From: Thermoplasmata archaeon
GTDB lineage: Archaea; Thermoplasmatota; Thermoplasmata; GCA-020350865
DNA length: 24,000 nucleotides
Direction of reading: 5' to 3'
Assembly (NCBI GenBank): GCA_020348445.1
Contig: CP070751.1
Span: 2,551,447-2,575,446, forward strand
Shown piece by piece: positions 5,546 to 21,654 of the stretch; the first letter of the stretch is position 1; every line of letters begins with the position of its first letter. Below the pieces are notes generated by a model. That model did not search any database and was not told where the DNA came from. It saw only the letters and a program-made list of their open reading frames with translations. The translations under genes and the position numbers were made by a program.

Positions 5546-6502
5546 ATGTTATATACCAATTCAATTAATAACCTCCGAGATCATGTGCCTGGTGATAGTT
5601 TGAGAAAGCCAACGATTTTATTTTATGTCATTGTGGTGAGTATCTTTCTGATGCCCTATTCCACCCAAACTGCATTTTCTGATGCAGAATTACCCCAGTG
5701 GAAGGTGGGATACAGGTGGGATTATAAAGGTCAGGAGCAGAACACCACAGTCAATCTCACTGTCAAGGTTATTGAAATAACTACTATAGAAATGAATGGA
5801 ATGGCTTATGATGTATATGTTGTAAACATAACATCCATTGCGATGATAAATCAAGTTCAAGATCAATTTCAAGTCATTGATCAAAAAAATAAATACATTC
5901 AAACGAGCAATTTAGCCACTGTAAAAGAGGAGATTTCCCATATTGCTCCTAATAGAAATATTAATGGGAATAACACTTACACACCTTTAAAGAAGGAATA
6001 CGATTTCCCTATTCTGGTTGGCAAGAAATGGACCTCTTCCTACACCAAGAATGTAAGTTTAGAAGGGCTGGGAACCTACCTCATCTCAGAAAGTATTAAT
6101 TATTCTGTTATAGCTGAAGAATCAGTTACAGTTGCCGCAGGTACATTTGATTGCTATAAAATCGAAATAGACGTTGGCACAGGTGTAATAGACCAATTCT
6201 GGTATTCTGAGAAAGTAAAAAACATAATCAAGACAACTCGCTTCTCAGAAGATATATTTTATGAAATGAACCTTACCGCCTATTCATTTAAGGAAGAAGA
6301 GGATGGTGATTCCGATGATATCACCACAGAGGACCTTTTGCCTTATATATTAATTCTGATCATCGTGATTTTGATAATTGTAGTTATCGTGGCAAGAAAA
6401 AGGAAAAAGAGCAAGAAGAAAAAGAAAAAAAAGAAGAAGAAAAAGACCATACCTGATGAGGACAAGAAGGTAGAGGAGAAAGAGGAAGAAAAATCTGAAT
6501 GA
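5546..6502 (+). CDS. Hypothetical type-I membrane-anchored extracellular protein with a poly-lysine cytoplasmic tail
   Basis: N-terminal hydrophobic signal-like segment (ILFYVIVVSIFLMPYS). The beta-rich ectodomain has many N-x-S/T sequons. C-terminal TM (LLPYILILIIVILIIVVIVA) is followed by RKRKKSKKKKKKKKKKK and an acidic tail. No recognisable catalytic motif. Confidence 0.5.
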   Translation: MLYTNSINNLRDHVPGDSLRKPTILFYVIVVSIFLMPYSTQTAFSDAELPQWKVGYRWDYKGQEQNTTVNLTVKVIEITTIEMNGMAYDVYVVNITSIAMINQVQDQFQVIDQKNKYIQTSNLATVKEEISHIAPNRNINGNNTYTPLKKEYDFPILVGKKWTSSYTKNVSLEGLGTYLISESINYSVIAEESVTVAAGTFDCYKIEIDVGTGVIDQFWYSEKVKNIIKTTRFSEDIFYEMNLTAYSFKEEEDGDSDDITTEDLLPYILILIIVILIIVVIVARKRKKSKKKKKKKKKKKTIPDEDKKVEEKEEEKSE

Positions 6503-8026: not shown

Positions 8027-9028
8027 ATGGAAAATAAAACACAGATGGGATTGTTATTGATTATAATAGGCATGTTGCTCGCCATCTTTTCAACTCTGGG
8101 AAGCATCGCAGCATCCAGTTTGGGAGGTTCAGGCCTTTCACCGGGGGCGCTAATACCAGGAATCCTGGGTTTCTTTGCTTTCATTCTCATGCTGGCAGGA
8201 TGGATCCTCATGATCACTGGTAGGAGGGAGTTCGGTGATAAACACTCCCAATTTGTTGTTTACTCAATAATTGCCCTTATAATTGGTTTTTTTATAGTGA
8301 TAGTTGGATCGATGATATCTGCATTTGCTGGAATCTCAAGCGGTGTGGAGAACGGAGAGGCAGAAGTCACATTTGATTACATTGCCATGGCCAAAGCCAT
8401 GAAGACAGGGATGATCATTTCATTTGTAGGTAGTTTATTGATTACCATTGGGTCAATTTTACTTGTATACAATCTCGAGAATGACATTGGTAAGAAAGTC
8501 CTCTATATCGCTTTCATCGTTTCAATTGTAGTCTCGATAGCGGTGATTATTTATACCCTACCATTATTAGATGACCTAGCCGAAAAACTGGAAGGTACGC
8601 CAGAAGATGATCGAGAGGACGAATTCTACGAAGGTATTGGTGACATCAGTTTGATAGAGGGCCTAGGTGTTATAGGCTCAGTAATTCTTTTAATTGGATA
8701 TTTCATCCCTTATAATCGTATAAAGAAAGGGGAGTTAGAACCTGTCCCACCGCCCACCGACACCCAAGGAATGCCTCCATATCCATCGTACCCATACCAA
8801 CCATATCCGCCTTATCAACCATCCCCAGGACAGCCCCCTGGTGCCCCCGTGGAAGGTGAGCCAAAACCCGATGGAGAGGTTACACAGCCTGAGCCCACCC
8901 CTGATGGTGCAGTACAACCAAAAGCCGTTACGCCGGAGCCGATAGAGACAAAGTATTGCAGATTTTGTGGAACTCAGATTCCAATGGAAAGCACTGTATG
9001 TCCTGTTTGTAATAAAACTCTGACATAA
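8027..9028 (+). CDS. Multi-pass membrane protein with a Pro/Tyr-rich linker and C-terminal zinc ribbon
   Basis: About 6 hydrophobic helices, then PPPTDTQGMPPYPSYPYQPYPPYQPSPGQPPGAP..., then CRFCGTQIPMESTVCPVC (CxxC-x12-CxxC). GAGGGA Shine-Dalgarno-like element at 8016-8021, 6 nt before the ATG. Confidence 0.6.
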   Translation: MENKTQMGLLLIIIGMLLAIFSTLGSIAASSLGGSGLSPGALIPGILGFFAFILMLAGWILMITGRREFGDKHSQFVVYSIIALIIGFFIVIVGSMISAFAGISSGVENGEAEVTFDYIAMAKAMKTGMIISFVGSLLITIGSILLVYNLENDIGKKVLYIAFIVSIVVSIAVIIYTLPLLDDLAEKLEGTPEDDREDEFYEGIGDISLIEGLGVIGSVILLIGYFIPYNRIKKGELEPVPPPTDTQGMPPYPSYPYQPYPPYQPSPGQPPGAPVEGEPKPDGEVTQPEPTPDGAVQPKAVTPEPIETKYCRFCGTQIPMESTVCPVCNKTLT

Positions 9029-9223: not shown

Positions 9224-9349
9224 TGCGGGGGAAGGGATTCGAACCCTTGAACCACTTCTGGACAGGATGTCCAAACAAGGCGCGTAAATTGAACCCTTAC
9301 ACCTAGGATCTTAAGTCCTGCGCCGTTGGCCATGCTTGGCTACCCCCGC
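9224..9349 (-). tRNA. tRNA-Leu (anticodon UAA) with a 41-nt intron at position 37/38
   Basis: Reverse complement: GCGGGGG TA GCCAAGCATGGCCAACGGC G CAGGA CTTAAG[intron ATCCTAGG...TTTGGAC]A TCCTG, long variable arm, AAGGG TTCGAAT CCCTT CCCCCGC A. Perfect 7-bp acceptor, class II D-arm, discriminator A73. Mature length 85 nt. CCA is not encoded. Confidence 0.8.
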
Positions 9350-10521: not shown

Positions 10522-12606
10522 CTAACTCACGATCTGGAAAAGATTCCTTTTCAAAAAATTTCCAAGATCTTTTTGACAATACCCGCATTCTGTAATTCCC
10601 TCCTCTATTGAATTGTGTAAACAATGTACGTGATAAGGCTTTTTGCATTGAATGCAGGGCATCTCGCAAAGGTCCTTGGTTTCCACAACAGGTTGCGTTA
10701 AAAGAGGAAGGCCACATACTGGACATTCTTTTTGACCGCATATTAAACATTTGAACAAGGATGTATTCCATAAAGATAAAGAAAGCCTATTTATTGCATC
10801 AACTAAAAACATACTGGGGGCCCAAGATTTCAATATATCAGTAAAAAAGGCTTTTACAGATTCCTTAAGTTCTAGATCACCAATATCGACTAAAATCTCG
10901 GGGGGAACAAGTGGGTAGGCCTGTGGGACCTTGATATTTAACTGGATCCGTTTAATTTTGGGTGCTGCTTCCCCTAAAATATCTCCCGTAGACGAGGGAA
11001 CTGGTATTGTAACCTTATATCCACCATCCACTACCTCAAAATCTTCAGTAACCAATCTCAGTAGTAATTCTTCGAACTCTCTTCTATATATATTATTTAT
11101 GACCTGGGAGAGGTTCCGAAGAACATCCATTATCCTCTTTTGCGGTTTCTTGGGCCATTTTTTGATTCCCTCCAGTTCCTCTATATCCAAGCCTTTCAGT
11201 TCTTTAGGTAAAGTTACCACAGGGGGAGAGGGGTATCCTCTTAAATCCATATCGATATCGATAAATTTCGGTCCATATGTTGATATCCTTATAAGGAACC
11301 TGTTCTTGCTCAATCTTTCGGCTCGATACTCCCTTTTGATGACCTCGAATTCACTTTCTATCATGGAATCCTCCACCAGCCTAACCTCTATACCCTGTAG
11401 AATATCCACGAGATTAGGTGTAAACACATCCTCCCAGTGCTTCAATTTCTTGAAGATTTCTTCAATACCGCGGATCCTGATCAACAGATCATCAGTGAAG
11501 GTTATGGATGGTTTTTTCGGGAACTCCTTATAATTTATGGTAACGGGATAGATGTTGTAAATCCCAGCATCCAGACATGAAAGGTAGACTACTACATGAT
11601 ACATTTTATCTCCGACCAACTCCAAAGAGAAATTGTTGGAAAGGTCCAGATACTGCGAAATCGCCTCCTCGTTCTCGAAGGAATCTTCAGTGGCTTCTGC
11701 ATCTGGTATCTCAAAATCGTAAGATGGCTCAATTTCAAAAAATGTTTCAGGAAGAACCTCCTTTACCTCAAACACCTCTTCTGAATCGATATCTGAGGAT
11801 TGTGGAGTTACCTCGATAAATTCCCCCTCAGGTAGAACCTCGACAACCTCTTCATTTTTCTCTTCACTTGACTTTTTACCATTTTCAATTTCCTTTACCT
11901 CGGATTGCTTATCCTCCCTCTCAGGATCTTCTTCCTTTATTTCTTCAGATGGTTTTATCCTGGATTGTATATTATAAAGCACATCCACAAGTCTTGGAGG
12001 GGACTTGGGATCCCAGTTGTTCAGATTTTCAAGCAATTCATCTAAACCGTCGATATTCACAAGGAGCTCATCAGTAAAGGAGAAGGTTGGCTTTTTTGGG
12101 TAATATTCAAAATCTATATTGACAAAGTACTGCTCACCGTCTGGCGAGTTTAAAAACACCGAGATGTCCCTGATGCTGCCGTCGATTAAAGCCAAAGAGA
12201 ATTCATCACTTAATTCAAGATACTGGTTGTAGATCTCTTCAGGTATCAGGCTGACCTCTACAGCGGTCTCTTTACCAGGCTCGAGATCTAAAGGAACGGG
12301 AATGTAGCAATGGGGGCATATTCTCTCTGCACCGTCGACACCAGATATGGCATTAAAATACTGCTCGATGCAACCCTTATGGAAGGCCACACCGCATATA
12401 TGTTCGTAATCGGCACCACCCCGCCTGCAGATAGCACATTCTTTTGTTTTTTGCACAACAGTTCTTAGTTTGTGCTGGAATCCGGATTCCACGTCCTTTT
12501 CTGATGATCGAGAAAATTTATTTTTTGGTACCCATATGGGAATCATAGGTATAAGAAATGACAAAGCGCAAATTTTTTTAGATAACAAGGATGGGAAACC
12601 TATCAT
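10522..12606 (-). CDS. Putative ubiquitin E3 / scaffold: RING-like finger, four tandem RWD/UEV-like (inactive E2-fold) modules, second RING-like finger
   Basis: The N-terminal finger has 8 ligands: C57-x2-C60-x8-H69-x-C71-x4-H76-x2-C79-x17-C97-x2-C100, with the RING-H2-like core CGVAFHKGCIEQY. Four repeats each carry the UBC/RWD hallmark YPxxP(P): EYYPKKPTFSF, KEFPKKPSITF, RGYPSPPVVTL, QAYPLVPPEIL. None has an HPN motif or a Cys at the catalytic position. The C-terminal finger is C628-x2-C631-x19-C651-x2-C654-x4-H659-x2-C662-x11-C674-x2-C677, with additional Cys at 620, 623 and 647. Lies on the same strand, 114 nt downstream of the Ubl-E1-E2-JAMM genes. Confidence 0.7.
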   Translation of the reverse strand: MIGFPSLLSKKICALSFLIPMIPIWVPKNKFSRSSEKDVESGFQHKLRTVVQKTKECAICRRGGADYEHICGVAFHKGCIEQYFNAISGVDGAERICPHCYIPVPLDLEPGKETAVEVSLIPEEIYNQYLELSDEFSLALIDGSIRDISVFLNSPDGEQYFVNIDFEYYPKKPTFSFTDELLVNIDGLDELLENLNNWDPKSPPRLVDVLYNIQSRIKPSEEIKEEDPEREDKQSEVKEIENGKKSSEEKNEEVVEVLPEGEFIEVTPQSSDIDSEEVFEVKEVLPETFFEIEPSYDFEIPDAEATEDSFENEEAISQYLDLSNNFSLELVGDKMYHVVVYLSCLDAGIYNIYPVTINYKEFPKKPSITFTDDLLIRIRGIEEIFKKLKHWEDVFTPNLVDILQGIEVRLVEDSMIESEFEVIKREYRAERLSKNRFLIRISTYGPKFIDIDMDLRGYPSPPVVTLPKELKGLDIEELEGIKKWPKKPQKRIMDVLRNLSQVINNIYRREFEELLLRLVTEDFEVVDGGYKVTIPVPSSTGDILGEAAPKIKRIQLNIKVPQAYPLVPPEILVDIGDLELKESVKAFFTDILKSWAPSMFLVDAINRLSLSLWNTSLFKCLICGQKECPVCGLPLLTQPVVETKDLCEMPCIQCKKPYHVHCLHNSIEEGITECGYCQKDLGNFLKRNLFQIVS
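10576..10749 (-). other. C-terminal RING-like zinc finger with an extra Cys pair (aa 620-677)
   Basis: CLICGQKECPVCGLPLLTQPVVETKDLCEMPCIQCKKPYHVHCLHNSIEEGITECGYC. It has the same pair2-x4-pair3 spacing (C-x2-C-x4-H-x2-C) as the N-terminal finger. Confidence 0.5.
10771..12246 (-). other. Array of four RWD/UEV-like E2-fold modules (aa 121-215, 311-410, 413-507, 508-612), with an acidic linker at aa 216-310
   Basis: Modules 1 and 2 align at roughly 40% identity by eye (EEIYNQYLELSDEFSLALIDG...YYPKKPTFSFTDELLVNIDGLDELLENLNNWDP..LVDVL versus EEAISQYLDLSNNFSLELVGD...EFPKKPSITFTDDLLIRIRGIEEIFKKLKHWED..LVDIL). Modules 3 and 4 keep the helix-strands-YPxxPP-helix layout. Confidence 0.5.
12307..12438 (-). 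other. N-terminal RING-like cross-brace zinc finger (aa 57-100 of the 694-aa protein)
   Basis: CAICRRGGADYEHICGVAFHKGCIEQYFNAISGVDGAERICPHC: four ligand pairs (C,C / H,C / H,C / C,C) with spacings compatible with RING/PHD. Confidence 0.55.
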
Positions 12607-12720: not shown

Positions 12721-13926
12721 TCAAAGTTCTATCCCGCAGTTTGCGCAGCTTGAATCACCTGGCATTATGGAATCATATCCACAGAATTCGCATTTAGCGG
12801 CTTTCTTGCGCTTTTCCTTCTTATGATCCTTTTTTAGCTTATCAATTGCCTTGTCCGTGGATTTTTGGTGCGACTCCAGTTTAATGCCCACAGATTGCAT
12901 ATCTTTTTGTATCTTCTGGACGAACTTACCCATTTCATCGATGGTCTTCTCCAGATTCTCCACCTTTTCAGTTAAAACGTGTTTCGGCCTCGCGTATTCC
13001 TCCTTGTACTCAAGAACCAATGGATAGCCCTCAGCAAGAAGCATTGTAGCTTCCACCATACAATCCAATACATCCTGTATGATATGCTCTACCTCAACAT
13101 TCTCTATCTCGACAAACTCCGATTTCTCCCCCAACTCAGGTGATTTTAACCTGAAAATCTTCAGATATTCATTGAGTTGAATTCCTTCTTTGAATTTAGA
13201 TGGATCAAAGACTATTGCCACGGCTTTGGGATTCAAGGATTGGTAGCCAGAGTGATTGACCCTGTCCACAGGGGATAAAAACAGCCCATGGCCTGGGTGC
13301 GTGTGATACCATCCAACAATCCAGTTTTCATCTGTCAGGTCTTGGTTTATCTCGTCGGCTTTGGCATAGTGCTCATTTTGGAATTCTACCTCAACCAAAC
13401 TACCGTGAACAATGGGAATTGCATCCATTATCTGTACTTTGGAATCGTCCACATTCCCAACGAGAAATCCCATGCATTCCACCCAATCCTTTCGTGGTGC
13501 CTTGGGATTGGAAAACCTCATTCCATGCCTAAGCACTTTGTTCAAGGCCCTATAACTGATTAAAACCTTTTCCTTTTCTTTTGGGGGGATCTCCTCCTTT
13601 TCCTCTAATGCCCCTTTCATAGCAACTTCTTGTATATCAGTTTCAGCCAGTTCATCAAGCTCTGATAGATAATCGTCTATTTCTTTCTCTTTCTTTTCCT
13701 CCATTTCCTTGGGCCTTTGCTCGATTTTCTCTTCTTTCTTTTCCTCGATTTCTTTGGGCTCTTTTTCTATCTCTTCCTCAATTTCCCTGGGTTCTTTTTC
13801 TATTTCTTCCCTCAATTGGGAGGACTCCTTTTTGAGCTTCCTTTTAGATTTCTTTCTTTTGACCTTAATCCTCTTTTTCTTAGGCATAATTCTGTGTCCA
13901 CTCCTTGGCCTTATTATCGAATTCAT
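12721..13926 (-). CDS. JAMM/MPN+ metalloisopeptidase (Rpn11/CSN5-like deubiquitinase) with a polybasic/EK-repeat N-terminus, coiled-coil region and C-terminal zinc ribbon
   Basis: Complete JAMM motif: E150 (WVECMGFLVG) and H208-T-H210-P-G-H-G-L-F-L-S218-P-V-D221 (codons 13264-13305). C-terminal ribbon CEFCG-x12-CANCG (12739-12792). An alternative start at M14 (ATG 13887) would overlap the E2 stop by 8 nt; the listed start overlaps E2 by 47 nt. Confidence 0.85.
   Translation of the reverse strand: MNSIIRPRSGHRIMPKKKRIKVKRKKSKRKLKKESSQLREEIEKEPREIEEEIEKEPKEIEEKKEEKIEQRPKEMEEKKEKEIDDYLSELDELAETDIQEVAMKGALEEKEEIPPKEKEKVLISYRALNKVLRHGMRFSNPKAPRKDWVECMGFLVGNVDDSKVQIMDAIPIVHGSLVEVEFQNEHYAKADEINQDLTDENWIVGWYHTHPGHGLFLSPVDRVNHSGYQSLNPKAVAIVFDPSKFKEGIQLNEYLKIFRLKSPELGEKSEFVEIENVEVEHIIQDVLDCMVEATMLLAEGYPLVLEYKEEYARPKHVLTEKVENLEKTIDEMGKFVQKIQKDMQSVGIKLESHQKSTDKAIDKLKKDHKKEKRKKAAKCEFCGYDSIMPGDSSCANCGIEL
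13699..13808 (-). repeat. Imperfect 33-nt tandem repeat encoding EEIEKEP(R/K)EIE units in the JAMM N-terminal region
   Basis: 13743-13775 versus 13776-13808 are 28/33 identical. A third, more degenerate unit lies at about 13699-13734. The protein reads EIEKEPREIEE-EIEKEPKEIEE-KKEEKIEQRPKEMEE. Confidence 0.6.
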
Positions 13927-14416
13927 CTTTATTGTATTTATACTGGGCTCCAGCCTCTCTGTTTAGGGGATCGTCCGGATTGAAGAAAGGAGGATAGCAA
14001 TGTATCATGAGTTTCAGACATTCAATGAGCATGGACAAATCTTTTGTGGGTGTCCATCCCATGGTTTTACTCTCGGGATCCACCTTCCCTATCCTGTCCG
14101 GGTTAATGATATCAAAACATACATTGTCCTTCCAAAAGCTCTGTGTCGGAGGGGCTCTGTTGATGTCTATATTGGGATGCCATATTCTGGTATGGCAGAA
14201 CACGCCTGGTGGATAGAACGGGTAATTGTTGAAGGTCTTGATCTCGAAAACGAACCTTCCGTCTTCATAGGGTGTTTCCTCTGCGCCATAAATCGTAACC
14301 TTCAAATGACCAACGAAAGACGCCCCAGGCCAAAGCTCTATTATAACGTATCTATCATTCTGAAAGCGTTGCAAGGCTTCAAAATAATCCCTCTCTATGC
14401 GCTCGAAATCCGCCAA
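13880..14416 (-). CDS. Ubiquitin-conjugating enzyme E2 (UBC fold, catalytically competent)
   Basis: YPFYPPGVFCHTRIWHPNI (YPxxPP plus the HPN triad at aa 80-82). Catalytic Cys100 in NVCFDII (codon 14117-14119). WTPTKDLSMLIECLKLMI and NPDDPL helix motifs are present. The start codon is TTG at 14416, 2 nt after the E1 stop, with GGAGGG 7-8 nt upstream inside the E1 3' end. Confidence 0.85.
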   Translation of the reverse strand: MADFERIERDYFEALQRFQNDRYVIIELWPGASFVGHLKVTIYGAEETPYEDGRFVFEIKTFNNYPFYPPGVFCHTRIWHPNIDINRAPPTQSFWKDNVCFDIINPDRIGKVDPESKTMGWTPTKDLSMLIECLKLMIHCYPPFFNPDDPLNREAGAQYKYNKDEFDNKAKEWTQNYA

Positions 14417-14418
14417 TA

Positions 14419-15654
14419 CTAGCCCTCCATCTCAATAATGAACTCAGCTTGTTCTCGCTTCAGTTTGCCGTTTTCATCGACAGATGTGTATGTGGCTCTG
14501 AGTATATCACGATTTTGGATTGGTAGATCAGACAATCTACTTCCCATGATGTCTTGGCCGGGAGCTGCGATCACTGATCCATCTATGATCTTGGTGATCA
14601 AGACCGTCTCTTTCAAATCCACTCCTTCTTTTTTAAGCGATGATAACATATCAGCAAAAGTAGAATCACTCTTCATTTTAAGGCTCAATTTCACCCTTTC
14701 CTTTCCGCATACAGCACAATTCTCATCCTTGGAGATTTCCACAGGGGTGAATATCCCGTAAGAAGAGCTATATTCAAGATATGAGGGTGACATTATCTCA
14801 CCAATATTAAGGCCCGAAAGGCGGTGAAGGATTTTCAGCACCTCATGGGAGACTATAGCCGATATGACCGCATTGACAGTCAATATGGAAGGGATTTTGT
14901 TCTCTATTATATTCTCCACCTCATGGGGCATGAATTCTTCGGCCTTCGTATGCGGGGATTCCTTTGAAAGCCTGGATGCGATTTTCGCAATCATATCAAG
15001 TTCCTTGTCTGAATATTCTTTATGAATACCATGCTCTTTTACGAACTCGTCCTCAGCCTTGAGTATACACTGCTCCCGGCTTCGGGGTTCGCCTGGGATA
15101 GAACAAGCAACGTACACCTTTTCATCTGCTGGAGGTATGGGAAAGAAGCATCGAAGACAGGGAGTTGCATCTTTTAAGAGAGGATCACCTTCCGGGATTA
15201 TCACCTGGACATTTCCCTTGAAACCAGTTGCAGCTCCATCAACATATGGCTTGCACAATTCATGTGCCAACCTGTTTAAAGCGAACCTTGCGGAAAAAGA
15301 GTCCAGGCCTCCTGCAATGAGATCCACACCCTCGAATACACTCATTGGTAAATCTTGAAATTTTTGGGTATAGGTTTCGATACTAACATCCGGATTTAGA
15401 ATCTTCAGTTTTTCTTTGGCTACCTCAGCTTTGAGTCTGCCTCTATCATTGTCAGTAAAAAGCATCTGCCTCGAAAGGTTCGAGGTCTCGATAGTATCCA
15501 TGTCTATCAAAATTAGATTCCCAACACCCACTAAAGCAAGGTTCTTTGCAATCTCACAACCCAATGCCCCTATACCAACGATTAGCACATGGGAAGAAGA
15601 AATGACGTCTTGGTCCCAACCCTCAAGGGAAAGATGTCTGGCATACCTTGCCAT
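14419..15654 (-). CDS. Ubiquitin-activating enzyme E1 (compact ThiF/MoeB-fold adenylation domain with catalytic-Cys insertion and C-terminal UFD-like domain)
   Basis: RYARHLSL...VLIVGIGALGCEIAKNL (GxGxxG), TSNLSRQ and DSFSAR adenylation motifs. Two CxxC pairs (CLRC, CAVC). Catalytic segment VACSIPGEPRSREQCI resembles the eukaryotic UBA3-type PMCTIASMPRLPEHCI (Cys codon 15103-15105). The last ~90 aa are beta-grasp-like. I prefer the start at MARYARH (15654), 10 nt after the Ubl stop. The ORF-track start at 15741 would overlap the Ubl gene by 77 nt. Confidence 0.85.
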   Translation of the reverse strand: MARYARHLSLEGWDQDVISSSHVLIVGIGALGCEIAKNLALVGVGNLILIDMDTIETSNLSRQMLFTDNDRGRLKAEVAKEKLKILNPDVSIETYTQKFQDLPMSVFEGVDLIAGGLDSFSARFALNRLAHELCKPYVDGAATGFKGNVQVIIPEGDPLLKDATPCLRCFFPIPPADEKVYVACSIPGEPRSREQCILKAEDEFVKEHGIHKEYSDKELDMIAKIASRLSKESPHTKAEEFMPHEVENIIENKIPSILTVNAVISAIVSHEVLKILHRLSGLNIGEIMSPSYLEYSSSYGIFTPVEISKDENCAVCGKERVKLSLKMKSDSTFADMLSSLKKEGVDLKETVLITKIIDGSVIAAPGQDIMGSRLSDLPIQNRDILRATYTSVDENGKLKREQAEFIIEMEG

Positions 15655-15664
15655 ATCTTTTTTA

Positions 15665-15940
15665 TCACTGGAAAATCCAACCACCCGCTTGTTGAGTAAT
15701 GATGGTAATGGTATCCTTTTCAGGTTTGTGGCCCAGATCATTCAACTTCTTTGAAAACACATCATTATCGGAAATGGGCTGGCCCTTATAGATTAGCTGA
15801 ATCACCAAAGCCTGGTGAATCTTATAGGCATTTCTTAGGAGGTTCTTTGTGTCCTTGCATGATGCTTCCTTCGGCACGTTTACAGATTTCGTGCCCTGGT
15901 TTGGCGGCAAACCCATCATCCTAAACTTGTATCTTGGCAT
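15665..15940 (-). CDS. Ubiquitin-like beta-grasp modifier precursor (C-terminal GG followed by the 4-residue propeptide WIFQ)
   Basis: 91 aa. ...LIYKGQPISDNDVFSKKLNDLGHKPEKDTITIITQQAGG-WIFQ parallels ubiquitin [34 protein letters not shown]. GG codons at 15680-15685. AGGTGA Shine-Dalgarno element at 15945-15950, 4 nt before the ATG. First gene of the cassette. Confidence 0.75.
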   Translation of the reverse strand: MPRYKFRMMGLPPNQGTKSVNVPKEASCKDTKNLLRNAYKIHQALVIQLIYKGQPISDNDVFSKKLNDLGHKPEKDTITIITQQAGGWIFQ

Positions 15941-16074: not shown

Positions 16075-16794
16075 TTAGAACTCAGTTTTCTCAGTAATAA
16101 CCCTTGTTACCTGAAACTCTCCATCACCATAAAGCAGGGTGTAATAATCTGGACTGTGGTTGGTACTCCTCATCTTAACGCATCTAATTCTTCTTTGTAT
16201 TGTAACGCCGTCCACGTTCTCCATTGTCAGGTGGATTATACCATCAGCCAGAAAATCCTCGCCGTATTTCCCGAAGTCCCTTGCACTCTGACTCATTTCT
16301 GAGATTAGGATTGTGGTTGAGTCCAGTTCCTTTAGCCATTCAAAGAGGTGGAAAAGGTCGTTTCTCGGCTCCGCAAAGTTCGCCAAAAGCTCCAAAACGG
16401 GTAAGGTGTCTAGGACCAATATATCGTAATCCATGTTCTTTTTGAGATTCTGGGCGTACATCTTGAATATTTGAGCCCAGGTCTGCTGTCCCAGTTTATC
16501 CAGATTCTTCCTAATCAGCGATAGATCCACCAAACTGATATTATCCTTCACCTCGTTGAAATTTAGTCCCATGGTTGCTATGTGATCCAGAAGACCCTCT
16601 CTGCTTTGCTCTAAAGTTATGTATGCACCTTTTAAGTTGTTCATTTGAGCGTTTTTGAATATTATGTAAAACGCTACCGAGGATTTCATGGTGCCAGGTT
16701 CACCCAAAATGAGAATATTGTGGCCCCGTGGAATCCCGCCATTCATCTTTTCATCAAATCCCTCAATATAGGTCTTGATACGCTCTTGCACCAT
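16075..16794 (-). CDS. Single-domain KaiC/RadA-like (RecA-superfamily) ATPase with an atypical Walker A
   Basis: IPRGHNILILGEPGTMKSSVA (Walker A with Met where the GK[ST] glycine is expected; codons 16681-16704), Walker B DILVLDTL, and a KaiC-like C-terminal beta-rich region. Lies directly upstream of the Ubl cassette on the same strand. Confidence 0.75.
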   Translation of the reverse strand: MVQERIKTYIEGFDEKMNGGIPRGHNILILGEPGTMKSSVAFYIIFKNAQMNNLKGAYITLEQSREGLLDHIATMGLNFNEVKDNISLVDLSLIRKNLDKLGQQTWAQIFKMYAQNLKKNMDYDILVLDTLPVLELLANFAEPRNDLFHLFEWLKELDSTTILISEMSQSARDFGKYGEDFLADGIIHLTMENVDGVTIQRRIRCVKMRSTNHSPDYYTLLYGDGEFQVTRVITEKTEF

Positions 16795-17000: not shown

Positions 17001-17116
17001 CGCTGAGGAGGAGATTCGAACTCCCGCGGTGCAGAGCACCACCGGCTATCAGGGTCTTTTTCGTTTCGTTTGAACTCTCAAGGCCGGCGCCGTAAGCCTG
17101 GCTTAGCTACCTCAGC
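17001..17116 (-). tRNA. tRNA-Ser (anticodon UGA) with a 29-nt intron at position 37/38
   Basis: Reverse complement: GCTGAGG TA GCTAAGCCAGGCTTACGGC G CCGGC CTTGAG[intron AGTTCAAACGAAACGAAAAAGACCCTGAT]A GCCGG T GGTGC TCT GCACC GC GGGAG TTCGAAT CTCCT CCTCAGC G. Perfect acceptor stem, 5-bp variable-arm stem, discriminator G73. Mature length 87 nt. Confidence 0.8.
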
Positions 17117-19116: not shown

Positions 19117-21654
19117 ATGGGACGGATAGGTAAGAAATTATATGGTACACAAGATATCAAGCAAGCAAATAATAATTTTCAAATATGGATTGTAATATTT
19201 TTGGTTGTATTAAGTTCAATATCCACTCATTGTTTAATAACAAAATCAAAAGCTGCCCCTATCATAATCGATGAGGACAGCAATGGATATTGGGAGGATT
19301 ATTTTGAGGATAACAAAGGGATCGAAACATGGGATAACATAGAACTGAATATGGGTGAGATTCGACTGATGGATATGTTATATGAGAATTTTACAGGACC
19401 TACCGGAACATACCCTGATGATAAAAAATGGGATATCATCCATCAAGGTGGAACTTTTGAAATAAACAATAACCGCATGAGATCCTCTGATTCCCCTCCC
19501 TATGGAACCTGGCACAATATGAAGGTCCAGACAAAATCGGATTTTAAACTGCCACACACCCTCACATGGAGGCAGCAGCTTCAGACCGTTGGAGGTGGTA
19601 TGTATTATCATTTCCGCGTTCAAAATGCATCAAGTGGTAATTCATTGTTGGGTATCTATCAGAATTATTTGGGAAATTACGGAGTTTATAATTACTATAC
19701 CTCAAGTGGAACTTCGATGGGTTCTTCAGTCTCTGGCTGGCACGATTACAAGGTTACCTTCAATGGTGGTTATTTAGAAATTTATATGGATGATGTATTA
19801 AAATTTTCTTATGACTATTTTGATGTGCAATCGGTTAGGTATCAAATCGGTATGGATATACTAGATCCAGCCTCTGCAACAATTTATACTGATGATATTC
19901 AAATCACTTCAGGTATCACATCTGGCAATCTAACCTCCACAGAAATCGTAATCCCAAAGGATCAGACATGGGAATCCTTGGAGGTCGATAAACTGGAACC
20001 GGTAAATGGAAATACTATTAATGTGTCGGTTCTTGATGGCATTACCTTCCTTGCAATTCCGGGATTTGATAATCTCAATGCATCTACTATTAATTTATCC
20101 TCAATTGACCCGACAACCTATCCCACCATACGGTTAAAAGCCCATTTTACAGGATACGACAATCGCACACCAGTTCTTTATGGGTGGAAGGTTACATGGG
20201 CCGATACCATAGCGCCCTCGCCTCCTTCAGGTTTGACTGTAAATGATCCTTATTCTGGTGATTCACTTAATATCAGTTGGGACCCCAACCCGGAGCCTGA
20301 TGTTGTATATTATTATTTGGATTACAGCACCGACAATGTTACATTTTATAGACTTGCCAATATCGATAAGAACACATTCTCATTCATTCATTCAAACCTC
20401 TTAACCGGAATTGAATACTATTACAAAATTGCAGCTGTAGATGAGATACCGAATCAGTCACCGTTTTCAGAGGTGAAGAGCACCATCTTAGACATCGATT
20501 CAGATGGGGATGGTATTGGCAATAGAATCGATGACGATATCGATGGCGATACAGTACCAAATTCCATTGATGAATACCCTTATAACGAAAATGAGTGGAT
20601 TGACTCGGATGGTGACGGTATCGCTGACAATGCAGATTTGGACGATGACAATGACAGTTATGATGATACCATCGATGATTTTCCATTCAATTCAAGTGAA
20701 TGGAAGGATACTGATTGCGATGGTATAGGAAATAACGCTGATCTCGATGATGATAACGATGGAATCCCTGATATCTCTGATATGTATCCCTTCAATGATG
20801 CAAATGATATTGAGGAGAGAATCGATGATCTTTCAGCAGAACTTACCAGCGTAAATGACTCCCTTTTTAATAGGATATCTGAGACCGAAATCAACATATT
20901 GAATAGGTTGGATAACCTCAACTGGAGCCCTATACTGAACTATATCGAAGGGATGAATGATTCTTTATCTTCAGAGATCCAGGATATACTGAACAGTATA
21001 ACAGATGACGTAATCGAATTGAACTCTTCTCTTTCAGATGAATTAACTATGCTCCTTGACAGTCTGAAAAACGATAACGATGCTTTAAGAGCATGGCTTG
21101 AATTGGTAACCAACGAATTGAACTCCCAGTTGACTGCTGCAAGCGATATCCTTTATAACCAATCGAATGAACTGGATGACTCTGATAATAATATTGAAAT
21201 AATCAACAACACCCTGGCGAATCTAACAAAGCTTGATAACATATTATCACAGCTTCTTGATCTTGACAGTGCATTGAAGGATGTTAACGATGATTTAAAG
21301 ACAAAGGCAGAGGATAAATCAAAAGAAGAGGAAATAGAGGATAGGATTCGATTATTGGAATTTTTCATTTTCATTGTGCTTTTATTATTGATCGTTAATT
21401 TAGTAGTGACATCTATCAGTTTATTAAGAAAGAAAATCCAAAAAGATACCAAGATTTCTGAGAGTTATAACAAAGTCGAACCTGAGCCTTTAGAGTCCTT
21501 TACCCTGGCATCAGAACCTGAGGAACCTAAAGAGATTATCAAGGAGAATAAAATCAAAGAAGAGGAACCTACACCACAAACACAATCTACACCCCCTTTT
21601 CCACCTCCCCCACCTCCTCCTCCACCACCTCCAAATGAAGAGGTGATAGAATGA
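19117..21654 (+). CDS. Large membrane-anchored surface protein: signal anchor, ConA/LamG-like beta-sandwich region, FN3, thrombospondin type-3-like Ca-binding repeats, N-glycosylation-sequon-rich coiled coil, TM, Pro-rich tail
   Basis: N-terminal TM IWIVIFLVVLSSIS. WHDYKVTFNGGYLEIYMDDV lectin-like strand pattern. FN3 at about 20212-20481. Repeats DSDGDGIGNRIDDDIDGD / DSDGDGIADNADLDDDND / DTDCDGIGNNADLDDDNDGIPD at 20482-20796. TM at 21361-21432. PPFP(x11) at 21592-21633. Confidence 0.7.
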   Translation: MGRIGKKLYGTQDIKQANNNFQIWIVIFLVVLSSISTHCLITKSKAAPIIIDEDSNGYWEDYFEDNKGIETWDNIELNMGEIRLMDMLYENFTGPTGTYPDDKKWDIIHQGGTFEINNNRMRSSDSPPYGTWHNMKVQTKSDFKLPHTLTWRQQLQTVGGGMYYHFRVQNASSGNSLLGIYQNYLGNYGVYNYYTSSGTSMGSSVSGWHDYKVTFNGGYLEIYMDDVLKFSYDYFDVQSVRYQIGMDILDPASATIYTDDIQITSGITSGNLTSTEIVIPKDQTWESLEVDKLEPVNGNTINVSVLDGITFLAIPGFDNLNASTINLSSIDPTTYPTIRLKAHFTGYDNRTPVLYGWKVTWADTIAPSPPSGLTVNDPYSGDSLNISWDPNPEPDVVYYYLDYSTDNVTFYRLANIDKNTFSFIHSNLLTGIEYYYKIAAVDEIPNQSPFSEVKSTILDIDSDGDGIGNRIDDDIDGDTVPNSIDEYPYNENEWIDSDGDGIADNADLDDDNDSYDDTIDDFPFNSSEWKDTDCDGIGNNADLDDDNDGIPDISDMYPFNDANDIEERIDDLSAELTSVNDSLFNRISETEINILNRLDNLNWSPILNYIEGMNDSLSSEIQDILNSITDDVIELNSSLSDELTMLLDSLKNDNDALRAWLELVTNELNSQLTAASDILYNQSNELDDSDNNIEIINNTLANLTKLDNILSQLLDLDSALKDVNDDLKTKAEDKSKEEEIEDRIRLLEFFIFIVLLLLIVNLVVTSISLLRKKIQKDTKISESYNKVEPEPLESFTLASEPEEPKEIIKENKIKEEEPTPQTQSTPPFPPPPPPPPPPPNEEVIE

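Follow-up and report, generated by a model that had tools for sequence, protein, structure and literature searches.

A 694-residue Thermoplasmata protein with two RING-like fingers and four pseudo-E2 modules, a candidate E3 next to a ubiquitin-like cassette

What does a large protein with RING-like fingers at both ends do beside the genes of a ubiquitin-like (Ubl) conjugation system in an archaeon? This question is raised by a 24,000-nucleotide (nt) stretch of a Thermoplasmata archaeon genome (contig CP070751.1, positions 2,551,447 to 2,575,446), referred to below as the window, in which a 694-amino-acid (aa) protein is encoded directly downstream of a Ubl cassette. An earlier note on this DNA had placed the protein at 10522-12606. 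Both coordinates and length hold, as one ATG-to-stop open reading frame (ORF), and to them we add the strand, minus, which was missing from the claim. We propose that the protein is probably a RING-type ligase (E3) for the Ubl of the operon and that its non-catalytic modules of the ubiquitin-conjugating enzyme (E2) superfamily, here called pseudo-E2 modules, would act as docks for Ubl, E2 or substrate.

Fingers and pseudo-E2 modules of the 694-aa protein

A GAGG lies 8 nt 5' of the ATG at 12606 and a TATA-like box, TTTTTATT, about 40 nt 5' of it, so the first ATG is a plausible start of the ORF. The copy held at NCBI (UCE39485.1, from a Thermoplasmata archaeon metagenome-assembled genome, MAG) starts at V39, is 656 aa long and carries the label 'E3 ubiquitin protein ligase'. 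The protein is divided as follows, with AlphaFold2 confidence given as predicted local distance difference test (pLDDT):

10522..12606, minus strand (12606..10522): whole ORF, 694 aa, ATG to stop; RING, module 1, acidic linker, modules 2-4, predicted three-zinc RING
12517..12573, minus strand: hydrophobic N-terminal stretch, aa 12-30, ICALSFLIPMIPIWVPKNK; conserved, pLDDT <40
12292..12444, minus strand: N-terminal RING-like finger (N finger), aa 55-105, pattern C2-H-C-H-C-C2; from its ligands and Pfam zf-RING_2
11941..12249, minus strand: module 1, aa 120-222, non-catalytic UBC/RWD/UEV fold, duplicate of module 2; pLDDT 82-93, hhalign
11680..11940, minus strand: acidic linker, aa 223-309, disordered; pLDDT <50, 32 Asp/Glu versus 8 Lys/Arg
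11371..11679, minus strand: module 2, aa 310-412, non-catalytic UBC/RWD fold; pLDDT 78-90, hhalign to module 4
11086..11370, minus strand: module 3, aa 413-507, non-catalytic UBC/RWD fold; shared helices, hhalign between modules 3 and 4, Foldseek
10759..11085, minus strand: module 4, aa 508-616, pseudo-E2; profile against PDB E2s, Pfam RWD and UQ_con
10567..10758, minus strand: C-terminal RBX1-type RING (C finger), aa 617-680, 12 conserved ligands; profile against PDB, Pfam, AlphaFold2
10525-10566, minus strand: C-terminal helix, aa 681-694, after the C-terminal RING

Among 5.8 billion proteins searched, 31 are close homologues (47-62% identity). They are mostly 650-723 aa long and come without exception from Thermoplasmata/Methanomassiliicoccales MAGs or metagenomes. 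Conservation is reported from an alignment of 28 homologue sequences with a mean column identity of 61%. NCBIfam assigns the protein to no family and, taken alone, it gives Pfam matches to RWD, zf-RING_2 and BRE that all lie under the curated cut-offs; significance was reached only with family-wide scans and profiles. Under these, the architecture read in the earlier note, two RING-like fingers around four inactive UBC/RWD modules, is borne out: Pfam RWD, UQ_con and zf-RING_2 match across the family, the profile of module 4 finds E2s, Foldseek finds proteins with such modules, and the C finger adopts a RING fold. The pattern of fingers and modules is not due to chance.

The structure was modeled using AlphaFold2 with the family alignment (predicted template modelling score, pTM, 0.58). 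Four modules (aa 120-222, 310-412, 413-507 and 508-616) were obtained at pLDDT 80-93, each with an alpha-beta(4)-alpha-alpha topology and with strand 4 preceded by a YP/FPxxP motif, while disorder is predicted for aa 1-54 and 224-308. Modules 2/3 and 3/4 are connected through helices 399-426 and 492-519, as in double-RWD domains. The claim of four UBC/RWD modules with a YPxxP-type motif thus agrees with the modeled topology, with Foldseek, with the profile of module 4 and with the links found by hhalign.

Module 4 is the closest to true E2s. Its profile retrieved canonical E2s from the PDB, with Ubc4 (8j1r_C) at E 4.9e-8 and Ubc13 at E about 1e-5, and Pfam recognizes it as RWD in 25 and as UQ_con in 17 of the 28 members. 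It retains the E2 core motifs YPxxPP and LxxW(S/A)P, whereas the catalytic E2 cysteine aligns with a hydrophobic residue and a helix takes the place of the HPN-to-Cys loop. Module 1 matches the UEV-like Pfam family BRE at E 0.005, below threshold (range E 0.0015-0.037). For modules 2 and 3 the profiles yielded nothing significant in the PDB with all matches to E 10 listed; BRCC45 and Mms2 are among the weak matches of module 2 (E about 1-2). The fold assignment of modules 2 and 3 therefore rests on the structure model and on hhalign links to module 4. With hhalign, module 1 pairs with module 2 at 99.8%, in line with the duplication proposed earlier, and with module 3 at 95.4%; module 4 pairs with module 3 at 96.1% (E 3.1e-9) and with module 2 at 80.6% (E 1.3e-5). 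The link of module 4 to modules 1-3 was absent with Thermoplasmata sequences alone and appeared once Asgard sequences were added.

None of the modules looks enzymatic. HPN is absent from every one of the 28 members, and the only cysteines outside the fingers, C13 and C344, are not conserved; C344 in module 2 is a cysteine in only 15 of 28 members and module 1 contains no cysteine at all. With HPN missing throughout and a conserved cysteine missing from every module, all four are, as the earlier note had proposed from the single sequence, non-catalytic members of the E2 superfamily (pseudo-E2/RWD-like) and not enzymes.

Searching the PDB with the whole model, Foldseek returned FANCL as the best match: 7kzp_L, which we take to be FANCL from its chain letter and length, at E 1.2e-7 over 418 columns on a 370-residue chain, and 9a0j_L at 7.9e-7. 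Behind FANCL follow the Knl1 double-RWD, Mediator, CENP RWD proteins (CENP-O), 3zqs_A ('FANCL central domain'), UFC1, E2s and the GCN2 RWD. The analogy to FANCL drawn in the earlier note is borne out by these matches to FANCL and double-RWD proteins.

The acidic linker between modules 1 and 2 carries the motifs VEVxPE..VEVT and LPxTFFE, in which E256, P259, E260, E265 and V266 are almost invariant and F289 and F290 invariant. These hydrophobic-acidic motifs resemble peptides of the SUMO-interacting (SIM), LC3-interacting (LIR) or UFM1-interacting (UFIM) type and may bind Ubl.

The N finger reads C57-x2-C60-x8-H69-x-C71-x4-H76-x2-C79-x17-C97-x2-C100, and all eight ligands are invariant (28/28). 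Its RING type was assigned from sequence: Pfam zf-RING_2 matches it in 27 of 28 members (best E 8.2e-5) and in isolation at E 7.5e-5, and the family profile finds the RING-like domain of NSE1 in the PDB at E 0.005. Residues at E2-contact positions are also invariant, namely I59 after the first cysteine, the helix aromatics Y83/F84 and P98 after the seventh cysteine. Mutagenesis of the Caldiarchaeum E3 srfp showed that the isoleucine after the first cysteine and the helix aromatic are needed (PMC5654768).

At the other end, the C finger contains 12 ligands that are invariant in the 28 homologues, C620, C623, C628, C631, C647, C651, C654, H659, H661, C662, C674 and C677, and Asgard relatives at about 20-35% identity keep the pattern. 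A profile built from 31 Thermoplasmata and Asgard sequences found RBX1 (E 5.5e-6) and RBX2 (1.3e-4) as its best PDB matches, with Arkadia, RNF4 and other RING-H2 E3s behind them. The ligands align one-to-one, in the order given, with C42, C45, C53, C56, C68, C75, H77, H80, H82, C83, C94 and D97 of RBX1, which implies three zinc sites, and zf-rbx1 is the commonest Pfam match (7 of 31 members, best E 1.7e-4). Modeled alone with AlphaFold2, the C finger reached a pLDDT of 80. The model superposes on the RINGs of TRIM, RING1B/BMI1, UHRF1, TRAF6 and listerin at 1.8-2.5 Å over 64-68 columns (probability 0.9-1.0); the top 50 Foldseek matches are nearly all RING ligases, with weak E-values of at least 0.02, and RBX1 is not among these 50. 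I622 is present, and the finger is without a proline after the seventh cysteine and without the helix aromatic. The knuckles that the earlier note described, H69-x-C71 and C651-x2-C654, the first followed by x4-H-x2-C and the second by x4-H659-x2-C662, are found exactly so. Its assignment of eight-ligand cross-brace fingers to both ends stands for the N finger and gives way at the C finger to 12 conserved ligands of the RBX1 type.

Ahead of the N finger, the hydrophobic stretch at aa 12-30 is proline-rich (LxPMIPxWVPK), and I22 and P23 are almost invariant. It may anchor the protein in a membrane or serve as a docking peptide. In the relatives P0061 and P0064 the same type of finger stands right after long hydrophobic stretches that, judged by eye, look transmembrane (TM-like), and the target is therefore possibly membrane-associated.

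A candidate E3 beside a ubiquitin-like cassette

Upstream of the 694-aa gene, on the same strand, the window encodes the following:

12721..13926, minus strand: JAB/MPN+ metalloprotease, Rpn11-like; Pfam JAB 9.3e-15, motif HTHPGHGLFLSPVD, immediately upstream of the 694-aa gene
13880..14416, minus strand: active-type E2, 178 aa, with HPN and a catalytic cysteine (NVCFDII); Pfam UQ_con 2.6e-22, PDB E2s to E 3e-16
14419..15741, minus strand: E1-like ThiF/UBA adenylating enzyme; Pfam ThiF 2.3e-58
15665..15940, minus strand: Ubl precursor, 91 aa, ending ...QQAGG-WIFQ; from the translation, weak Pfam ubiquitin match at E 0.005

A long, repetitive Lys/Glu-rich region (EEIEKEPREIEEEIEKEPKEIEE...) forms the N-terminus of the JAB protease, whose C-terminal zinc ribbon has the form CxxC...CxxC. 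As listed, its ORF overlaps the E2 gene by 47 nt; judging from homologues, translation probably begins at M14 (nt 13887). The gene order PheT, KaiC-like, Ubl, E1, E2, JAB, 694-aa gene and convergent UppS is found in the window and in the loci L003, L004, L011, L013 and partly L012, and Ubl-E1-E2-JAB followed by the E3-like gene recurs in 6 of 9 distinct Thermoplasmata loci. Between the syntenic loci UppS, E2, Ubl, KaiC-like protein and PheT are 79-91% identical (the Ubl 86-91%) and E1 74-76%, compared with 58-62% for the 694-aa protein and 52-71% for JAB, which indicates faster evolution of the protease and the putative E3 than of the core enzymes. The KaiC/RecA-like ATPase (239 aa, 16075-16794, minus strand) lies just upstream of the Ubl and is 87-91% identical in all four syntenic loci that reach that far.

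Against the PDB, the operon E2 matches UBE2T, the E2 that works with FANCL, best (62.7 bits), ahead of UbcH5-type E2s (59-61 bits) by a margin of about 1.5 bits that may mean nothing; a specifically UBE2T-like assignment was therefore not adopted. The nearest named eukaryotic matches of this E2 are coral 'E2 T-like' proteins.

The cassette contains no other RING protein and no small RING ORF, so the 694-aa gene fills the slot held by srfp in Caldiarchaeum. This operon position and the anatomy of the protein point to an E3 or scaffold, and on the same basis we expect zinc binding by the fingers, binding of E2, ligase activity and docking by the modules. In the system as we picture it, JAB would trim the four residues after the Gly-Gly of the Ubl, and E1 would adenylate the Ubl and hand it to the catalytic cysteine of the E2. 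One or both RINGs of the 694-aa protein would then recruit the thioester-linked E2~Ubl and promote transfer of the Ubl to lysines, while the four dead UBC/RWD modules and the acidic linker would dock substrate, Ubl (free or donor) or the E2 at its backside.

Several observations weigh against this assignment. The canonical linchpin Arg/Lys after the last cysteine is missing from both fingers, where Y101 and Q678 take this position. At L001, L002 (the same locus as L014) and L005, which form a sister clade, UppS is still next to the gene, but the genes before it are the sugar-modifying DegT and GFO/IDH/MocA in place of the Ubl cassette. An oligo-T run follows the JAB stop, and both this run and the TATA-like box lie between JAB and the 694-aa gene, which may therefore be transcribed apart from the cassette from its own promoter. 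Finally, the whole-chain template modelling (TM) scores of the Foldseek matches are low (0.15-0.24), so that these are matches of architecture and local fold and not rigid-body superpositions; the inter-domain geometry is either different or poorly predicted.

The operon itself is of a known kind. In Caldiarchaeum and Asgard archaea such cassettes comprise a pro-Ubl with residues after the GG, E1, E2, a Rpn11-like JAB and a RING protein (PMC3082918, PMC5654768, PMC6043591). The cassette of the window matches this set, with a pro-Ubl of GG plus four residues, and the N finger retains two E2-contact positions, the Ile and the aromatic, that were tested by mutagenesis in srfp. Its E3 slot differs, in that a 694-aa protein with two RINGs and four pseudo-E2 modules stands in place of a small single-RING protein, the linchpin Arg is lacking, and the host belongs to the Thermoplasmata, not to the Aigarchaeota or Asgard archaea.

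Among eukaryotic proteins, the plan is most like that of FANCL, the human DNA-repair E3 of the Fanconi anaemia pathway. The E2-like fold (ELF) and double-RWD domains of FANCL bind ubiquitin and substrate, and its RING, a two-zinc C4HC3 finger, binds the E2. Both proteins join non-catalytic UBC-fold modules by shared helices and end in a RING. There is no significant sequence similarity of the 694-aa protein to FANCL models, however, and it has an RBX1-type RING with three predicted zinc sites, an extra N-terminal RING, a fourth module and the acidic linker. With no sequence signal and a different RING type, the protein is FANCL-like in plan and probably not a member of the FANCL family. The C finger by itself is nearer to RBX1/RBX2 (ROC1), with which it shares the 12-ligand pattern including the predicted third zinc site (an extra C-x2-C, a Cys and a His). 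It differs in being fused to pseudo-E2 modules instead of forming a small stand-alone subunit, in its Cys-x2-Cys knuckle (Cys-x-His in RBX1), in its last ligand (Cys versus Asp) and in lacking the N-terminal cullin-binding strand; no cullin-like gene was found in the 24-kb window. Non-catalytic E2-superfamily domains that work with or support ubiquitin enzymes are also known from RNF25 and other RWD-RING proteins, from the UEVs Mms2/Uev1 and TSG101 and from BRCC45/BRE, and Pfam RWD, UEV and BRE match modules 4 and 1. The number and order of domains set the archaeal protein apart, with a RING, one module, a linker, three modules and a second RING.

These likenesses suggest other roles, which have to be weighed against that of an E3. 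BRCC45/BRE consists of tandem UEV-like domains and is a scaffold for the JAMM enzyme BRCC36; the 694-aa protein could likewise serve the neighbouring JAB as a scaffold or regulator without catalysis of its own, or be a reader of Ubl conjugates, with fingers that only stabilize or bind. In six loci its gene does come right after JAB, UEV/RWD modules typically act as binders without catalysis, and BRE and BRCC45 appear among the matches of modules 1 and 2 described above. Every BRE match is sub-threshold, though, BRCC45 has no RING compared with two fully conserved RING-type fingers here, one of them RBX1-type, and Asgard relatives described below occur with no JAB next to them, so we consider such a role unlikely. 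A UEV- or E4-like cofactor of chain building, in which module 4 would partner the active E2 in the way Mms2 partners Ubc13 and position the acceptor Ubl for chain extension instead of substrate selection, would suit a module whose nearest true E2s include Ubc13 and which lacks the catalytic cysteine; several modules could also hold several Ubl. This proposal overlaps with an E3 function and does not exclude it, no examined sequence feature bears on Ubl chain formation, and we give it a small chance of being the correct description.

FANCL itself deserves a closer look in this respect, since a true orthologue in ancestral form, paired with a UBE2T-like E2 for the mono-modification of a DNA-repair factor, would account for FANCL being the best structural match and for UBE2T and the 'E2 T-like' proteins heading the matches of the operon E2. 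The narrow lead of UBE2T over UbcH5-type E2s speaks against it. So do the Pfam FANCL_C match in just 1 of 28 members (E 0.015), the absence of any FANCL chain from the profile searches of modules 2 and 3 (to E 10) and from the 60 best matches of the module 4 and C-finger profiles, and the contrast between the RBX1-type RING and the two-zinc RING of FANCL. No DNA-repair genes lie near the 694-aa gene, and to our knowledge archaea have no Fanconi anaemia core complex. Orthology is thus very unlikely. Hardest to maintain is that the fingers are PHD-like or other treble-clef binders of nucleic acid or protein, with no part in Ubl conjugation and next to the cassette by coincidence. The C4HC3-like spacing of both fingers is compatible with PHD, weak Pfam matches to PHD_NSD/PHD occur, and three loci lack an adjacent cassette. 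We rejected the PHD reading because the best matches in sequence and structure are RING E3s, and not PHD fingers; moreover, four E2-superfamily modules share the chain with the fingers and the linkage to E1/E2 recurs in two archaeal phyla, which leaves coincidence highly improbable. A RING E3 for the operon's Ubl remains the reading we favor.

Relatives in Thermoplasmata and Asgard archaea

A full HMMER scan of 1.84 billion representatives yielded 85 relatives. Those with names are Thermoplasmata proteins or Asgard 'hypothetical proteins' (Promethearchaeota/Lokiarchaeia, Helarchaeota, Sigynarchaeota), and none is eukaryotic. Besides the full-length form, four architectures occur:

350-460 aa: three modules and the same 12-ligand C-terminal RING
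about 570-600 aa: four modules and a C-terminal RING, without the N-terminal RING
short Thermoplasmata form: N-terminal RING, three modules and C-terminal RING
single module-1-like domain fused to other domains, e.g. longin

Asgard forms have three or four modules with the same C-terminal RING. The earlier note had suggested looking for the same domain order in Asgard genomes: the core of modules and C-terminal RING is there, and the complete order of RING, four modules and RING occurs only in Thermoplasmata among the relatives found. The full-length type turned up in only 4 of 185,579 species genomes, a count from a scan with two N-finger peptide patterns that undercounts. One Helarchaeota relative is directly followed by an E1 gene whose product is 46% identical to the E1 of the window, and Asgard relatives occur with no adjacent JAB. 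With this distribution, three UBC-like modules followed by an RBX1-type C-terminal RING are the conserved core of the family. The core follows the plan of FANCL, whose three UBC-fold domains (ELF and double RWD) and RING give the same module count. The N-terminal RING and module 1 are add-ons to it, and the 694-aa protein is the most elaborate form.

Lone module-1-like pseudo-E2 domains with other N-terminal domains are found in P0072, P0065 and P0069, a group whose named members are Lokiarchaeia; in P0072 the partner is a longin domain of the Fuz/Mon1 type. Such fusions suggest that a broader, undescribed radiation of RWD/UEV-like domains may exist in Asgard archaea.

We found no description of the family in open-access papers and bioRxiv (FANCL/RBX1/RWD with Asgard; Thermoplasmata ubiquitin system). 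For RWD-type modules in archaea, the searchable literature holds only one Asgard RWD-like sequence and one Uev-like homologue (PMC6601020). The window adds a non-Asgard archaeon with a complete Ubl-E1-E2-JAB cassette and a large multidomain putative E3, which has simpler relatives widespread in Lokiarchaeia and Helarchaeota. As far as we know, the archaeal ubiquitin systems studied to date use a minimal single-RING E3. If the protein is an E3, the complexity of such ligases and the radiation of RWD domains would be pushed back before eukaryogenesis, the sharing of ubiquitin machinery between Asgard archaea and Thermoplasmata would be documented, and a compact operon-encoded system would be at hand to study how pseudo-E2 modules aid a RING ligase. 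A more speculative proposal, which we think rather doubtful, makes the Asgard/Thermoplasmata core of three pseudo-E2 modules and RBX1-type RING the prokaryotic ancestor of FANCL (with a UBE2T-like E2 as partner), of the RBX1/APC11-class RING, or of both. If true, RWD-scaffolded E3s and the three-zinc RING would predate eukaryotes and not be eukaryotic inventions.

Other features of the window

Rfam places two tRNA genes on the minus strand, at 9224-9349 (126 nt) and 17001-17116 (116 nt), while ARAGORN in bacterial mode found none; both are probably intron-containing archaeal tRNAs. On the plus strand, 5546-6502 encodes a 318-aa predicted membrane or secreted protein that has 11 consecutive lysines (KKSKKKKKKKKKKKT) and then a Glu/Lys-rich tail at its C-terminal end. 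An 845-aa putative surface protein (19117-21654, plus strand) has Asp-rich calcium-binding-like repeats (DSDGDGI..DDDNDG) and, close to the C-terminal end, a TM-like hydrophobic stretch; about 15 prolines in a row stand at the C-terminus. The 333-aa multi-pass membrane protein encoded at 8027-9028 (plus strand) combines a segment rich in Pro/Tyr with a zinc ribbon at its C-terminus, and with it synteny is kept beyond UppS in L003, L004, L011 and L012.

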